NCBI GenBank assembly: GCA_016197005.1
Contig: JACPWO010000001.1
Coordinates: 87,266-151,265 of the forward strand
DNA from: Candidatus Anderseniibacteriota bacterium
Lineage (GTDB): Bacteria > Patescibacteriota > Andersenbacteria > UBA10190
Reading direction: 5' to 3'
Length of the DNA: 64,000 nt
Below are positions 3,846-53,740 of the stretch, piece after piece. The first letter of the stretch is position 1. Each line of letters begins with the position of its first letter. Made by a program: the position numbers and the translations under genes. Below the pieces are notes generated by a model. That model had not been told where the DNA came from and did not search any database. It saw only the letters and a program-made list of their open reading frames with translations.

Positions 3846-5435
3846 CTAGCGGATGAGCGCATTTCGTACAACTTCAGGGACACGACCTTCAAAGAGGGTA
3901 ACAGTGCCTGATCCCACGCTTGCCGTAACAGTAGTGGTAAGTTCTTCGGATCGCGTAAACCAAAGCGCATTCTTTTGCTTTTTCCCCATTCCTTGACGAA
4001 TGTCGTGCTCATGCGCTTTCCCAAAAATTAAGACAGACGCACCACTGGCCGCTAGTGCTTGGCCCAGTCGCCGGTGTACACCTTTTCCTTCACGACCCAA
4101 TTCAATGATTGGTACAAACACGATGCGTTTATCTTCGGCATCAAATGCTTTCAGCTGCTCTAGCGCATTTAAAGCTGCCGCTTCGCCACCCGAATAACTG
4201 TCATCAATGACGACGGAACCACGAAGACCAGGCACAATGTGCATAGTTCGCGAAAGAGGCTTAAGACGACGCAGTGCAGCAAAAATATTTTTCGCTGGCA
4301 CATTGAGTGCACTCGCTGTGGCCGCTGCTGCTAAGGCACTATTCAATGCTGCCCGACCGGCTAGCGGGAGTGTGATTCGCTGCTGATTCTCACCAATATG
4401 CAGGAGAGCAGAAATCGATTGGGGAGAAAGAGAAATATCCTCAGCATATACATCGGCTCGGGTTTTCATTGAATACGCAACGACGGGAACTTTAGCCGTT
4501 TTGCTTCGCGTACGAATACGCTCATCATCCTTATTTACAACCGCCACGCCTTCAGATGGTAAGCCCTTTATTAACTCCCATTTGGCGGCCGCCAGGGCAG
4601 CAGTTGATCCAAAAAGTGCCGCGTGTTGATTAGAAATTGCGGTAACAACTCCAATACGGGGACGAGTAAGTTGAACAAGCGCAGCAATTTCTCCACGACG
4701 GTACGCAGCCATCTCGGCAATGTAAATTTCTGGTTCTTTCCGCAACTGTTCAATCATATCTTGGGCAACGGCGAACTCACTATTACGATGAGCACGGGTG
4801 GCCCGCACATTCAGCCCAGCTTGCTTGAGGATCTGGTACAAAAATTCTTTTGTAGAAGTTTTGCCAAAACTACCAGTAATACCAACCACTTTCATTTGTT
4901 GACGACTATCTCTCAATCGTGAAGCTTCTGCGATAATAGAACGTTTGCGAATACCGGCGACAGCATTGGCAAAAAGAACACATACGGCTGCAGCGGCAGG
5001 TAAAAAGAAGAGGAGGGTAGACAGCTGCAGGGCCGGATACAGTGGACTTCGCACTACCATCAGTAAAAGACCAATGACGACAGCGGCCAGAAGAAGTAAT
5101 AGAATTCCTGCTTTCGGAGTAATGTGGGGGCGGTAAATACCCGTGACCATCGCTTCGTACGCATATTTTAAAGCAAGCAGTATCAAGGCGGCGAAACCAA
5201 AATAATCTGGTAGCTCTGTAAAACCAGAAATGTACGTTACCCAACCAGCAAAAACACCAGCGGCGAATAATAAGAAAAAAATATCTTGCGTGGGACTGCC
5301 TTCAGGACTGGTTAGATAGGAACGCATTCGATCCCAGCGATATTCTTTTCGCTGCCAAAGGTAAGTTTGACGTAAAATAGAAAGCGTAGCGAGTATGCTG
5401 GCCAGAAGGGAACTTACCAGATAGGGTATCGGCAT
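3846..5435 (-). CDS. MurF-like Mur ligase with an N-terminal ~170-aa 4-helix membrane domain replacing the canonical N-domain
   Basis: Central and C-terminal domains align block by block with MurF: GITGSFGKTSTKE, AEMAAYRRGEIA, TRPRIGVVTAISNQHAALFGS, VVNKDD, LPLAGRAALNSALAAA, DDSYSGG. The first ~170 residues are hydrophobic helices. Confidence 0.7.
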   Translation of the reverse strand: MPIPYLVSSLLASILATLSILRQTYLWQRKEYRWDRMRSYLTSPEGSPTQDIFFLLFAAGVFAGWVTYISGFTELPDYFGFAALILLALKYAYEAMVTGIYRPHITPKAGILLLLLAAVVIGLLLMVVRSPLYPALQLSTLLFFLPAAAAVCVLFANAVAGIRKRSIIAEASRLRDSRQQMKVVGITGSFGKTSTKEFLYQILKQAGLNVRATRAHRNSEFAVAQDMIEQLRKEPEIYIAEMAAYRRGEIAALVQLTRPRIGVVTAISNQHAALFGSTAALAAAKWELIKGLPSEGVAVVNKDDERIRTRSKTAKVPVVAYSMKTRADVYAEDISLSPQSISALLHIGENQQRITLPLAGRAALNSALAAAATASALNVPAKNIFAALRRLKPLSRTMHIVPGLRGSVVIDDSYSGGEAAALNALEQLKAFDAEDKRIVFVPIIELGREGKGVHRRLGQALAASGASVLIFGKAHEHDIRQGMGKKQKNALWFTRSEELTTTVTASVGSGTVTLFEGRVPEVVRNALIR

Positions 5436-5485
5436 ACCATCTATAATAAAGGAACTGGTAAGGACTAACTAGTAATACAGCACCT

Positions 5486-6448
5486 ATGAATCTAACGATA
5501 CAAATTGTCGGTTGGAATAGTGAAGGTAGTCTCAAGCGCTTACTGCCATTACTTCAAAAGCTGGACGCTGCTATTCCTGTTCGATATATCGATAACGCTT
5601 CAAGCGACGATTCTGTTGCCGTCGTAAAACAATTTCTGCCGCGGGCGGACATTATTACCGTTTCTGAAAACACTGGCTTTTGTAGCGGACATAATATTGG
5701 ATTTGCGGCTTGTGATACTGAATTCGTTCTTGTCCTTAATCCTGACGTTGAAATTGTTTGGGAACAAGTTCAAAAACTACTGCCATTGTTTCAAGACAAA
5801 ACAATTGCAGCCGTGCAAGGAAAACTTATGCGGAATGCCGTCGGCATTCTTGATTCCACCGGCGTTGTTCAAACAATTACACTTAATGGAAAAGAGCGTG
5901 GGGCAGGAGAAAAAGATACCGGACAGTATAACCAGCCAGCTCATGTGGCTGCCACTACTGGAGCATGCAGTATCTATCGCACCTCGGCTCTTCGTCGCGT
6001 AGCGCACGGCACCTATACGACCGCGGGACACTCTGCCTTAGAGGTGTTTGATAAAGATTTCTTTGCTTATAAGGAAGATGTGGACTTGGGTTGGCGTCTT
6101 AGAAATGCCGGGTTCACTAATCAGTATCTGCCGGTACGAGTAGGTACCCATCCTCGAGCCATGCGAACTATTGGTAGAGCAGGTTGGGGAATTATTCCTT
6201 CGCACATAGTAGACCGCCTACGAAACGTGACGACTCGTTGGTCCCTACGCAATTACGTCTGGATGATTGTAAAGAATGCTTCGGCGAAAAAAATATTTCT
6301 TCATGAAATTTTTATTGATGCACGACTTGGAGTATTCATTCTTCTCTCTCTTGTATACTGGCCCCTCTTATCGGTTTGGCTTGACATTTTCCAGAAATTA
6401 CCTCTAATGATGGAGAAACGCTATGAAGCTCGCCATTATCACCGTTAA
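5486..6448 (+). CDS. glycosyltransferase family 2
   Basis: GT-A N-terminal pattern (IVGWNSEGSLKRLLPLL, DNASSDDS, DxD-like LNPD). Confidence 0.65.
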   Translation: MNLTIQIVGWNSEGSLKRLLPLLQKLDAAIPVRYIDNASSDDSVAVVKQFLPRADIITVSENTGFCSGHNIGFAACDTEFVLVLNPDVEIVWEQVQKLLPLFQDKTIAAVQGKLMRNAVGILDSTGVVQTITLNGKERGAGEKDTGQYNQPAHVAATTGACSIYRTSALRRVAHGTYTTAGHSALEVFDKDFFAYKEDVDLGWRLRNAGFTNQYLPVRVGTHPRAMRTIGRAGWGIIPSHIVDRLRNVTTRWSLRNYVWMIVKNASAKKIFLHEIFIDARLGVFILLSLVYWPLLSVWLDIFQKLPLMMEKRYEARHYHR

Positions 6449-22521: not shown

Positions 22522-22551
22522 TTGACAAATTCGTAATATTAGGTATATAAT
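22522..22551 (+). promoter_or_regulatory. near-consensus sigma70 promoter
   Basis: TTGACA at 22522-22527, a 16-18 nt spacer, then TATATAAT at 22544-22551. Followed by AGGAGA and the ATG at 22601. Confidence 0.5.
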
Positions 22552-22600
22552 AACAGGGTTTCAGTTGCTCTATACAATCAATAACCTATAGGAGAAACCC

Positions 22601-22792
22601 ATGAGAATGCTACGGGCGTGGTGGGAGCTGGCGGGATGCTTCGGCATTGTGGTGGGGTATGGACTTAGGGACGCTATTCAGGGTAAGTGGACGGTGGCCT
22701 CTGCTACCGTTGCCACTGGGCTCGTCCTTAGTGGCGTAATAGTCGGCATTATCCTACTTACCTCTATTCAGATCCTTGGTCTGAAGATCTGA
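22601..22792 (+). CDS. small hydrophobic two-helix membrane peptide (63 aa)
   Basis: Strong promoter plus AGGAGA RBS, two predicted TM helices, and its own downstream terminator. Confidence 0.45.
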   Translation: MRMLRAWWELAGCFGIVVGYGLRDAIQGKWTVASATVATGLVLSGVIVGIILLTSIQILGLKI

Positions 22793-22818
22793 ATAGAGTT
22801 GAAGCAAACGCTTCCGTA

Positions 22819-22862
22819 AGAACCCCTTCCCAGCGTGGGATGCGTTAAGGGTTCTTTTTCTT
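22819..22862 (+). terminator. rho-independent terminator
   Basis: AGAACCC...GGGTTCT stem with an inner CCCA/TGGG hairpin, followed by TTTTTCTT. Confidence 0.6.
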
Positions 22863-22907
22863 ACCTAATTTCATCGGGTTGGCTCAGCTTCTCATTGTGC
22901 TACACTA

Positions 22908-51041: not shown

Positions 51042-51845
51042 ATGTCCTCTATGCGTGGGCGCCTCCGCCTCTTAAAGCCAAAGATTCTGGAATGGCTATC
51101 CGTTGTGTTACTGGCGGCTCTCATTATTGTGCCACTGTCTATTCTGTCGTGGCTCATATTTTTCACTAATACCTTTATTATCCAAACGGTAACGGTTGTT
51201 GATGCTCGAGATCACACGGCCGAGAAAATTCAGCAGGAGACAAGTTCACTTATCGGAAAAAACATCTTACTCATTCAACCAGAAATAATTGAGCAGTCAC
51301 TGGCTGACTCTATCTTTCAAATTCATAATATTCGGGTTGTACGCAAACTGCCCAGTGCGTTAAAAGTTGTTGTGCAAGAAAAGCAACCGTCTCTTCTTCT
51401 TTTGTCCGGCGGTAAGTACCACTTCATAGATCGACAGGGAATTGCGTACGAGGAAGCTCAACTAGATACGCTGCCAGGTATAGTATTACCAACGATTAAA
51501 AATACCGGTGAACACAGTAACGTCGTTTTAGGAACAGCAGCGGTTAGTGAGCCGTTTGTAACATTTATTTTGGAAGCGCAGAAAAGTTTACCCGGTGCCA
51601 CTAAGGCGCAAATAGCAGAAATTCGCATTCCGTCGCTGTCAGCTCGAGAAGTACATATTCTTCTCGATACCAACTGGCTCATTCGCTTTGATACCAGTCG
51701 GCCACTGGAAAGTCAGCTAAACGTATTACAGCGCTTACTGGAGCACACAATACCAGCAGAAAGTCACAACCAAATTGAATATATTGATTTGCGGATTCCA
51801 AACCGTGTGTACTACAAACTCCGTAACGCTCCCTTAACTCTGTAG
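51042..51845 (+). CDS. ftsQ: cell division protein FtsQ/DivIB-like (POTRA domain)
   Basis: Single N-terminal TM helix followed by a POTRA-like block (IQTVTVVDARDHTAEKI...IHNIRVVRKLPSALKVVVQEKQP). Confidence 0.6.
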   Translation: MSSMRGRLRLLKPKILEWLSVVLLAALIIVPLSILSWLIFFTNTFIIQTVTVVDARDHTAEKIQQETSSLIGKNILLIQPEIIEQSLADSIFQIHNIRVVRKLPSALKVVVQEKQPSLLLLSGGKYHFIDRQGIAYEEAQLDTLPGIVLPTIKNTGEHSNVVLGTAAVSEPFVTFILEAQKSLPGATKAQIAEIRIPSLSAREVHILLDTNWLIRFDTSRPLESQLNVLQRLLEHTIPAESHNQIEYIDLRIPNRVYYKLRNAPLTL

Positions 51846-51850
51846 ATAAG

Positions 51851-51878
51851 TTGACAAGAGACCGATTATGCGTATAAT
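51851..51878 (+). promoter_or_regulatory. consensus sigma70 promoter (TTGACA-16-TATAAT)
   Basis: Perfect hexamers at 51851-51856 and 51873-51878, with TG two nt upstream of the -10. Confidence 0.6.
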
Positions 51879-51884
51879 GTAAGG

Positions 51885-52233
51885 ACAAATTTGTTCTTCT
51901 CATTAGGTGAGGAGAGGATGTTTAGGGCTTCCTAACATCTCTCCCTGGAGGGAAGATGGGCGGCGAGTGGATCCGCTTTAGTAGCCCAGATACTCTTCTC
52001 CTCACCCTTACCTTCATCGACCTGCGTTGTATAATCTGTAAAACTCCCTTCAGGTGTTGCAACGCAAGGGCGACTTCTATACCCGTATGAGTGCGGTCAA
52101 TCCTTTTCATTGGCGGATCATCCAATTCCATTCCCATTAATCCGCCCTACTCATACGGTTCTTCCCTCGCCTCGCTGGCAATCTCACACTAACCCTTCTC
52201 GGAAGTGCGACCAGCGAGGCTCTTTCTTTTTTT
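51885..52233 (+). ncRNA. candidate ~340-nt structured non-coding RNA of unknown class (or a 44-aa Cys-rich peptide)
   Basis: Perfect promoter upstream and a strong terminator downstream, with no plus-strand ORF of 60 aa or more. Several nested stems, for example CCGTATGAGT(52084-52093)/ACTCATACGG(52152-52161) enclosing GGCGGAT/ATCCGCC, and GGTGAGGAGAG.../...CTCTTCTCCTCACC. Confidence 0.4.
52169..52233 (+). terminator. rho-independent terminator
   Basis: GCCTCGCTGG (52169-52178) pairs with CCAGCGAGGC (52211-52220), followed by TCTTTCTTTTTTT. Confidence 0.65.
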
Positions 52234-53740
52234 AACGCTGAATTTTTCTTACAAATACTTCTCCCTGATACGTGAATACTTCGGGAAATGTCTTTTCTTC
52301 AATGACTCTCCAGTTGATAGGAAGTGGCAACTTAGTTCCACCAAAACCCGATGTTTCAACTAATGTCATGTTTTGTATATTTGGCTGATCGAACACACTC
52401 GGTCCAATAATATCTTGATCAGTTAGGATTGGTCCTCCTTCAAAGTGAGCTAACTGACCGGTTTCTGAATACAACTTTGCTTCAGTAGTATTACCGTATT
52501 CTTCTTGAAGATAGTGAATAACGGCAAAATAAATAAAAGGAGAGGTGACAACAACGGGTCCTTCGTCATGTACCTGGAAAGCATACGTTGTAGCGGCATG
52601 CGCTCCTGGTTTGTTTTCTATATCTAGTTCCTGCCAGAATCCCCAATACGTCGTAAGAAGTAAAAGAATAGTTACCGCAGAAGCCCAGGGATACCAGCGA
52701 CGAGGCAGCTGCGCTAGTAACATCGCTAAAGCAATAAAGATAAAGATGTTAGCGAATACGAGGAAGCGATCTTGGTATAAGCTCTGGCCGACAAAGGAAA
52801 TAGCAATAGCCAGTAGAAATGGCACAAACCCCAGAATAACCACAAACCATTTTGCATCTCGCGCGTGCCGACCAGCAAGTACAATTCCCCAGCCTATAAT
52901 TGTGAAGATAATAGGAAGACTCGTCAGAAAAATACCAATGCCTGCATGAGAAGGAATTCCCGAAGTCGGTACGTACATTCGGTAGAAAGTATCCGGAATA
53001 GACCACCCACCAATCGGAGGCACCCAGTAGCTTTGTTGTACTTGAGAATTTTGAGTGATGAATGTCGGTATCCACGGAAGATAGAAACCAATTACCAAGA
53101 TGGCAGCACCCAGGGCGGACCAGAGGAGAGGGGACTGCAGCATTTCACCCACGCGCCAACGTGTTCTCATGATAAGTGCTGCGAGAACAAATAAGCCGTG
53201 AGCAAAGAGCGTAAAAAAAGCAAAGTAATGGGTGTAAGCAAATGCCGCCGCAACTATGCTATATAAGGCCCATAGGTACAGATTCTGCCGACGAACTGCT
53301 TTTAAGAGGAGCCAGGAAGAAATGAGAGCAAGAAAAGTTCCTAAGGTATACATGCGGGCTTCCCAGGCAAACGCAGCTTGCCAGCCAGATGCGGCCAGCA
53401 GGGCGGCTGCGACTACACCAACGGAACGGCGACCAGTAGCGGTCGTTGTAAATAGATAAGCAGCGAGAAGCGTTGCACCAGCCAGCGTGACCGAAAAGGA
53501 GCGCAGCCCCACTAGTGAGGTACCAAATATTTCAGTCCAACCTCGTAGAATCACGTAGTACAGCGGGGGATGAACATCAGTTGCTGCCCGGGCAATCATT
53601 TCCGAAAAGGGAAATTCTACGAGCCGCCAGGAAAATGCTTCATCAAACCACAAACTTCGGGCAGTGAGGTGCCATGAACGCAGCGCCACCCCGCTCGCAA
53701 CAACAAGAATGAGAATCCAAATCGCTGTTTTCCGTTTCAT
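52232..53740 (-). CDS. glycosyltransferase family 39/83 (PMT/ArnT-like polytopic membrane glycosyltransferase)
   Basis: N-terminus LRSWHLTARSLWFDEAFSW with a DE motif in the first loop, and more than ten TM helices. Confidence 0.7.
   Translation of the reverse strand: MKRKTAIWILILVVASGVALRSWHLTARSLWFDEAFSWRLVEFPFSEMIARAATDVHPPLYYVILRGWTEIFGTSLVGLRSFSVTLAGATLLAAYLFTTTATGRRSVGVVAAALLAASGWQAAFAWEARMYTLGTFLALISSWLLLKAVRRQNLYLWALYSIVAAAFAYTHYFAFFTLFAHGLFVLAALIMRTRWRVGEMLQSPLLWSALGAAILVIGFYLPWIPTFITQNSQVQQSYWVPPIGGWSIPDTFYRMYVPTSGIPSHAGIGIFLTSLPIIFTIIGWGIVLAGRHARDAKWFVVILGFVPFLLAIAISFVGQSLYQDRFLVFANIFIFIALAMLLAQLPRRWYPWASAVTILLLLTTYWGFWQELDIENKPGAHAATTYAFQVHDEGPVVVTSPFIYFAVIHYLQEEYGNTTEAKLYSETGQLAHFEGGPILTDQDIIGPSVFDQPNIQNMTLVETSGFGGTKLPLPINWRVIEEKTFPEVFTYQGEVFVRKIQR

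Follow-up and report, generated by a model that had tools for sequence, protein, structure and literature searches.

The 64,000-nucleotide (nt) stretch of DNA analyzed here ('the window') belongs to a Candidatus Anderseniibacteriota bacterium (assembly GCA_016197005.1, contig JACPWO010000001.1, positions 87,266 to 151,265), and the element in question lies between two convergent genes, ftsQ and a glycosyltransferase family 39 (GT39) gene. The gap between these genes measures 386 bp and is entirely filled by an RNA unit on the plus strand, with its promoter beginning at 51851 and its terminator ending at 52233, in a window of which 93% is coding and only 7% non-coding. The unit is complete and directional, is present as a single copy (a repeat search of the 64 kb found no second one), and joins strong structure and the lack of conserved coding to signs of selection on the promoter, the leader and the first helix. 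In an independent Logan assembly (L059, run SRR12113387), the 461 bases from 51800 to 52260 are 100% identical to the window, and the unit is therefore not an assembly artefact. From sequence comparison we conclude that it is probably a real, selected and lineage-restricted non-coding RNA gene that belongs to no described family. The features of the locus are as follows, with pairing given as in the predicted minimum free energy (MFE) structure, for which the 5' end was set at a predicted start about 7 nt after the -10 element:

51042-51845, plus strand: ftsQ (POTRA_1/FtsQ_DivIB_C homologues), stop codon at 51843-51845
51851-51878, plus strand: sigma-70-type promoter, with -35 element TTGACA at 51851-51856, 16-nt spacer and -10 element TATAAT at 51873-51878
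51885-51905, plus strand: 5' leader, U/C-rich ACAAAUUUGUUCUUCUCAUUA, unpaired
51906-52006, plus strand: hairpin domain H1, with basal helix GGUGAGGAGAGG.../...CUCUUCUCCUCACC and branched apex
51956-52090, plus strand: open reading frame (ORF) of 44 aa, MGGEWIRF...CIIC...CC, with Shine-Dalgarno (SD) sequence GGAGGG and AUG at 51947-51958; judged not to be a gene
52007-52016, plus strand: linker 1, unpaired CUUACCUUCA(UCG)
52017-52073, plus strand: hairpin domain H2, TGCGTTG.../...CAACGCA, with loop UAAAACUCCCUU
52074-52082, plus strand: linker 2, unpaired CUUCUAUAC
52083-52158, plus strand: hairpin domain H3, with an outer and an inner stem and a 21-nt loop, CAUCCAAUUCCAUUCCCAUUA
52159-52168, plus strand: linker 3, unpaired UUCUUCCCUC
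52169-52233, plus strand: intrinsic terminator, with a 10-bp GC-rich stem, a structured 32-nt interior and then UCUUUCUUUUUUU
52232-53740, minus strand: GT39 gene, PMT_2 family, named 'glycosyltransferase family 39' by NCBI, stop codon at 52232-52234

The predicted promoter, which starts 5 nt past the ftsQ stop codon, matches the sigma-70 consensus at 12 of 12 positions. Dinucleotide shuffles of the window contain an average of 0.06 such sites; the window itself has two (51851 and 22522), both of them within its small non-coding part. The original prediction, made from the sequence before any comparison, had called this the best promoter in the window, and while the perfect match holds, the first rank has to be shared with the site at 22522. 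Counterparts of both promoter elements occur at the same junction in two related loci (TTGACA-16-TACAAT in L031 and TTGACA-16-TATAAT in L073). A DNA palindrome at 51881-51898 spans the predicted start site and overlaps the leader, and together with the conserved spacer described below it suggests that the promoter may be regulated.

Folding of the predicted RNA (51885-52233) gave an MFE of -127.9 kcal/mol, compared to -90.3 (standard deviation 4.6) for shuffled sequences (z = -8.2), with none of 100 shuffles as stable, in good agreement with the roughly 340 nt of highly structured RNA that had been claimed (we estimate about 345 nt). Because the minus-strand fold is likewise stable (z = -6.3), the strand is not decided by folding energy alone. 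Orientation is instead given by the terminator, a hairpin at 52169-52220 whose two stem strands, GCCTCGCTGG (52169-52178) and CCAGCGAGGC (52211-52220), are complementary at 10 of 10 positions and are followed by the T-tract TCTTTCTTTTTTT at 52221-52233, the last bases of which overlap the GT39 stop codon. As read from the sequence, no T-tract follows this hairpin on the minus strand; the terminator is thus directional for the plus strand only and agrees with the promoter on orientation. The strong terminator of the original prediction is therefore present as described, although our promoter and terminator scan missed it because only loops of 3-8 nt were allowed. With its own predicted promoter and terminator between convergent genes, the unit is independent and not the leader of a downstream gene, again as had been proposed.

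Downstream of the promoter, the predicted fold begins with a U/C-rich leader that stays unpaired; behind it come H1, H2, H3 and the terminator, four hairpin domains separated by pyrimidine-rich linkers. The long arms of H1, GGTGAGGAGAG.../...CTCTTCTCCTCACC, comprise 24 nt each (51906-51929 and 51983-52006). They had been interpreted as a P1-like long-range pairing, and the stem does exist, but it is only the basal stem of H1, spanning 101 nt, and does not close the whole RNA. The nested stems reported within the unit are all present: the outer stem of H3 pairs CCGTATGAGT (52083-52092) with ACTCATACGG (52149-52158) at 10 of 10 positions, and the inner stem pairs GGCGGAT (52112-52118) with ATCCGCC (52140-52146). 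The inverted repeats of the hairpins are all internal, and the stems are unrelated to one another. Linker 3 is perfectly complementary to GAGGGAAGA at 51948-51956, which is not significant by itself given that we estimate about 0.2 such 9-nt complements by chance; a pseudoknot or an anti-SD pairing between these segments is possible.

Homologues of FtsQ and GT39 assign the window to Candidatus Andersenbacteria. To place the unit in its lineage, about 60 related loci (designated by L numbers) were gathered by means of FtsQ. The surrounding gene order is kept, with penicillin-binding protein, GreA, LysRS, SerRS and FtsQ followed by convergent GT39, a 176-aa gene, GtrA and DnaX. In 43 of the approximately 60 loci, ftsQ and GT39 overlap or are no more than 60 nt apart, such that the unit represents an insert relative to the common state. 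Non-coding units of the same layout were found in 11 loci from about 10 genomes: window/L059, L031, L032, L073, L074, L043, and a group formed by L010, L017, L016 (the same as L044) and L023. Their common layout is a TTGAC(A/T) at or overlapping the ftsQ stop codon, a chain of long hairpins and, at the GT39 stop codon, a terminator made up of a long hairpin and a T-tract. Members of the L010 group have TTGATC or CTGATC in place of TTGAC(A/T), and no -10 element was found in their units, which may be transcribed from ftsQ. We also considered the TTGAT/TTGAC at the ftsQ stop codon as a target site of the type used by the insertion sequences IS200/IS605, and rejected this since loci without the element mostly lack it and the end hairpins do not resemble each other; the motif's absence from such loci also leads us to regard it as part of the unit, namely its -35 element.

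Despite the common layout, the bodies of the units cannot be aligned between groups. Smith-Waterman comparison of all units, evaluated with shuffles, found related pairs only between the window and L031 and within the group L010/L017/L016/L023, and an nhmmer search of 72 loci with the element matched only L059 (identical) and L031. The 10-mer CTTCTATACC, common to the window and L017, was discarded as a sign of homology (p = 0.025-0.04 before multiple testing), and a 10-mer in L017 and L016 that is similar to linker 2 is not significant. In the FtsQ tree, a clade with bootstrap support of 95% mixes lineages that carry a unit (window/L031, L073 and L032) with lineages that do not (L057/L033, L060/L061 and L058). 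The unit must then have been ancestral and lost at least three times, or it was gained repeatedly, and for this clade we favor the ancestral origin; L043 and the L010 group are regarded as separate or unresolved relative to this clade. Within the L010 group, the stems of L010 and L017 differ at few of their 56 pairs (two double changes, two one-sided changes and no broken pair). Every stem substitution thus preserves pairing, which argues for selection at the RNA level on the L010/L017 unit; L016 and L023 are more distant members of the same group.

The closest comparison for the window itself is L031, whose FtsQ is 86% identical and whose junction can be aligned to the element (nhmmer E = 3e-4; Smith-Waterman z = 7). 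From the -35 element to the 5' strand of H1 the two loci are about 75% identical by hand count on the alignment, whereas fourfold-degenerate sites of ftsQ are saturated, with 36% identity. Conserved blocks comprise TTGACA, GATTnTGCG in the spacer, TAYAATGTAA, AAUUUGUUCU in the leader and GGUGAGGA. Conservation further includes the H1 3' strand and the linker behind it, CUUAC(C)U.CAUCG, the counterpart of linker 1 being UUACUACAUCG. When the two folds are compared, one G-C pair of H1 is missing from L031 on both strands and two G-U/G-C switches keep pairing. The apex of H1, on the other hand, is replaced, making the domain 101 nt in the window and 68 nt in L031. The start of the 44-aa ORF lies in this apex, and two 1-nt indels break its frame. 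Given the difference between 75% and 36% identity, the replaced apex and the broken frame, the 5' module appears to be under purifying selection and the 44-aa peptide does not.

The base of H1 recurs in four to five lineages. A basal helix of the form GGYGNGGR/YCCNCRCC constitutes the first hairpin in L031, in L073 (FtsQ 63% identical; TTGACA-16-TATAATGTAA, a leader hairpin ACAA...UUGU, then GGGUGCGGGG/CCCCGCACCC) and in L074 (FtsQ 61%; GGUGGGGA/UUCCCACC), and with a bulge in L032 (FtsQ 69%; GGCGGGAA/UUC(g)CCGCC). Hairpins whose 5' strand reads GGYGNG and whose 8 basal pairs are all intact are uncommon, numbering 28 on the two strands of 452 kb of related DNA, or about one per 30-45 kb of strand, and in three independent lineages such a hairpin is the first after the promoter. 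In an engineered alignment of the eight basal pairs, 40 of 40 cells pair and four pairs are changed on both sides. A hidden Markov model of promoter and leader, built from the window and L031, had as its best match in about 0.5 Mb the syntenic L073 site, at E = 3.5. The comparison with relatives suggested in the original prediction has a mixed outcome that is nevertheless positive: most relatives have no unit, while in those that do the promoter, the 5' leader and the base of the first helix are conserved well beyond neutral expectation and the rest turns over.

With moderate confidence, we interpret the unit as a stand-alone non-coding RNA gene, whose product would be a regulatory RNA of a fast-evolving Candidatus Andersenbacteria family lacking prior description. 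A transcript of about 345 nt (roughly 51885-52230) would extend from the consensus sigma-70 promoter to the unit's own intrinsic terminator, the RNA itself being the product. Members of the family would have in common a 5' module (promoter, U/C-rich leader and the GGYGNGGR/YCCNCRCC base of H1), followed by a variable body of two to four more hairpins and the terminator hairpin. Regulation would presumably occur through the conserved leader and helix, and possibly through the pyrimidine-rich linkers and loops, by pairing with a target RNA or binding a protein. At the same time, the unit would stop transcription coming from the ftsQ direction at the GT39 stop codon, before it enters GT39. Since the GT39 strand carries no terminator, any GT39 read-through would be perfectly antisense to the unit's RNA. 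Our best guess combines the two roles: a regulatory RNA with an additional insulating effect on the convergent gene pair.

Several observations weigh against this interpretation. The comparative support leaves out H2, H3 and the terminator, as L031 is the sole alignable relative and its contig ends 155 nt past the ftsQ stop codon. The pair counts for H1 were obtained from helices chosen as helices and are partly true by construction, so that the informative part of that alignment is the invariant G1, G2, G4 and G6 together with the common position. The unit is missing from the sister lineages L057/L033, L060/L061 and L058, and it is thus dispensable. A mechanism by base pairing finds weak support: unpaired regions are only marginally enriched in 4-mers of the anti-SD kind (18, compared to 11 +/- 3.6 in shuffles, p about 0.065), shuffled sequences have the same pyrimidine content in their unpaired parts, and an RNAduplex scan of 61 translation start regions performed no better than with shuffled RNA. 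Within the window, matches complementary to the leader and the linkers are likewise at chance level or explained by coding composition.

Among described systems, the closest to a regulatory RNA of this kind are RNAIII of Staphylococcus aureus, a long multi-hairpin regulatory RNA, and the stand-alone small RNAs that have their own sigma-70 promoter and intrinsic terminator. The window unit resembles them as an intergenic promoter-to-terminator unit with multiple hairpins, pyrimidine-rich unpaired linkers and loops (UCCC and CUUCC here), a conserved 5' part with a variable remainder, and a short incidental ORF. It differs in having no sequence or structure homology to described small RNAs in Rfam and in the marginal level of its anti-SD-like enrichment. 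A second parallel is with 6S RNA and the actinobacterial Ms1, which are similarly highly structured and non-coding and evolve quickly in sequence; like them, the window RNA is probably abundant, as predicted from its consensus promoter. However, it forms a chain of four hairpins with unpaired ends, unlike the one rod opened by a central bubble that is typical of 6S RNA, has no Rfam match and is missing from sister genomes.

If the regulatory interpretation is correct, the unit is a good candidate for a riboregulator specific to its lineage, among the first in the Candidate Phyla Radiation (CPR)/Patescibacteria. Genomes in this group are very compact, and even so the window gives an entire intergenic gap to a structured RNA bounded by promoter and terminator. 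As far as our literature search found, almost nothing has been described on regulatory RNAs in this group, and no paper on structured RNAs of CPR bacteria or Andersenbacteria was found. The junction further offers a natural experiment in the birth, divergence and death of small-RNA genes. A more far-reaching version, which we consider doubtful, is that the units form a family of large structured RNAs (150-650 nt) that is specific to the CPR and strongly expressed, with a conserved 5' module and a hypervariable body. They would constitute a new class with a dedicated protein partner or a catalytic or scaffold role, as opposed to ordinary small RNAs that act by base pairing. In that case, the rapid replacement of whole hairpins between close relatives (H1 in L010 versus L017, and the H1 apex in the window versus L031) would point to diversifying selection, such as host-symbiont or phage conflict. 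Conversely, should the RNA turn out to be merely an insulator or a relic, the finding would be an ordinary one.

The main rival explanation, unlikely in our view though the strongest of those considered, is that the act of transcription and termination matters and the RNA sequence does not. Polymerase traffic from the strong promoter would block read-through from GT39, and the abundant RNA would also pair with a 3' extension of the GT39 transcript and lead to its cleavage. Several lineages have units at this junction that are alike in layout and unrelated in sequence, a recurrence that such an insulating or cis-antisense role would explain. It also fits with bodies that turn over fast while promoter and terminator persist, and with the lack of an intrinsic terminator on the GT39 strand in the window. 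The 43 loci with abutting or overlapping genes, which have no terminator between them, also count in its favor. Yet a terminator would suffice for insulation, with no need for a consensus promoter or 300 nt of structure, and most relatives live without any spacer. The conserved leader and H1 base helix indicate a sequence-specific role, and insulation explains neither the consensus promoter nor the conserved 5' module.

At several related loci the same junction holds other material. In L015, a 217-aa IS200-like/RAYT-like Y1 transposase (PF01797, E = 2e-8) is encoded on the minus strand at 4798-5609, between ftsQ and GT39, with identical copies of the hairpin CAAACCTCGGAGGTTTG on either side of it; the junction is thus a transposon landing site as well. 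Unannotated ORFs occupy it in L004 (4842-5387, 181 aa), L052 (3872-4249, 125 aa) and L032 (2768-3277, 169 aa, which has an acidic repeat tail and a separate promoter, GTGACA-17-TATAGT). Neither the 181-aa nor the 169-aa ORF has a Pfam match, and tblastn with the three ORFs found no match in the window or at the other loci. In L024, short tandem repeats of the GTAACTG/GTAATTA type take up the junction over about 99 nt (4760-4858). With a transposase, ORFs or a tandem repeat inserted there in other loci, the junction is a permissive site.

This content gives some room to a further explanation that we hold to be improbable, in which the unit is a relic or passenger of a mobile or otherwise inserted element, neutral or selfish in sequence, at a junction that is one of few permissive sites in a compact genome. 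The L015 transposase between identical hairpins, the junction ORFs of L004, L052 and L032, the tandem repeat of L024 and the patchy distribution of units on the FtsQ tree are all consistent with it. Repetitive extragenic palindromic (REP) sequences, bacterial interspersed mosaic elements and IS200/IS605 hairpin elements are comparable in that hairpin-rich DNA lies at convergent 3' ends, as it does around the Y1 transposase of L015. The window unit, by contrast, is single copy in 64 kb, has hairpins that are mutually unlike, shows neither terminal inverted repeats nor a target duplication, and possesses a promoter of consensus sequence and a terminator that is directional. There is no transposase nearby, and when the window was searched by tblastn with the L015 transposase and with the junction ORFs of L004, L032 and L052, nothing was found, hence no transposase homologue. 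Searches for a mobile source also speak against a relic: blastn against phage and plasmid collections gave no match, and two pattern scans of IMG/VR gave zero matches and 11 chance matches without wider similarity, respectively. Conservation of the 5' module, too, goes far beyond what neutral change would leave.

A small protein or type I toxin mRNA, in which the 44-aa Cys-rich peptide would be translated from a GGAGGG SD masked by two pyrimidine tracts, is very improbable. The SD and AUG do exist, segments complementary to the SD are found upstream (about 51936-51946, read from the sequence) and downstream (52160-52168), and the window's other perfect promoter drives a small hydrophobic ORF. 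Type I toxin mRNAs such as hok and aapA1 of Helicobacter are also structured transcripts of 300-400 nt with a short ORF, and here too the SD of the short ORF can pair with pyrimidine tracts on either side. The peptide itself, however, has no homologue among 5.8 billion proteins and no clear transmembrane helix, is not conserved in L031 where its start region is missing and its frame is broken by indels, and has Cys codons that coincide with the H2 stem sequence (TGCGTTGT/GTTGCAACGCA). A consensus scan of 51851-52233 found no promoter-like site on the minus strand, that is, no antisense promoter of the kind expected for such a system. None of four small ORFs scanned, this one included, has a Pfam match, and comparison of all units in three frames yielded no common peptide, in line with the earlier statement that no substantial ORF is present. 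Two other candidates were set aside: a minus-strand ORF of 71 aa, which matches only long proteins over many short stretches at 27-36% identity and was read as low-complexity, and a likeness between MGGEW in the window and MAGKW in L032, whose positions and frames differ.

The weakest alternative, a diverged RNase P RNA, transfer-messenger RNA (tmRNA), 6S RNA or signal recognition particle (SRP) RNA missed by covariance models, is hardly credible: the size of about 345 nt and the strong promoter would suit RNase P RNA or tmRNA, and atypical RNAs are known for CPR bacteria, but there is no Rfam match even at E <= 10 here or on six related units, ARAGORN is negative, and the unit is missing from this locus in sister genomes. 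The Rfam scan proposed with the original prediction (Rfam 15) matched no family to the unit, the whole window at gathering thresholds yielding two tRNA-Ala genes only and the 701-nt slice 51700-52400 at the permissive threshold (E <= 10) a chance match to a miRNA model (E = 2.9); permissive scans of nine related loci returned chance-level matches only. Searching the window with ARAGORN likewise found the two tRNA-Ala genes and no tmRNA. Each candidate also fails individually, in line with the original prediction, which had found no signature motifs of these RNAs: RNase P RNA (RF00010/RF00011) for want of a covariance match at E <= 10 and of any GAGGAAAGUCC-type P4/CR-I motif, tmRNA (RF00023) with no Rfam match and no tRNA-like end seen, 6S RNA (RF00013) with no Rfam match and with MFE and centroid structures of four separate hairpins whose unpaired ends form no 6S-like rod, and bacterial SRP RNA (RF00169/RF01854) with no Rfam match.

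A few further observations concern unit-bearing or related junctions. Between L010 (4786-4950) and L017 (4786-4865), the second hairpin and the terminator are nearly identical, while the first hairpin is wholly replaced (about 165 versus 79 nt), resembling a cassette-type hypervariability of one domain. The gap between ftsQ and GT39 in L074 (996-1740) measures about 700 nt with no gene called, and seemingly contains two successive hairpin/T-tract units, with T-runs near 1460 and 1660. L011 (and also L039) has the same 36-nt hairpin, GGTGAGGG...CCCTCATC, twice within 3 kb (2147-2182 and 4845-4880), once at the ftsQ stop codon, and this may be a REP-like repeat.

Elsewhere in the window, the other perfect promoter (TTGACA-18-TATAAT, 22522-22551) drives a stand-alone hydrophobic ORF of 63 aa (22601-22792) that is preceded by an AGGAGA ribosome-binding site and followed by a hairpin and T-tract at about 22820-22866; this unit (22522-22866) resembles a small membrane-protein gene with very strong signals. 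A promoter matching 11 of 12 positions (TTGACA-16-TCTAAT, 6381-6408) is located directly upstream of an ORF starting at 6424, for which the label of a GT2-like glycosyltransferase is a guess made from the sequence alone.

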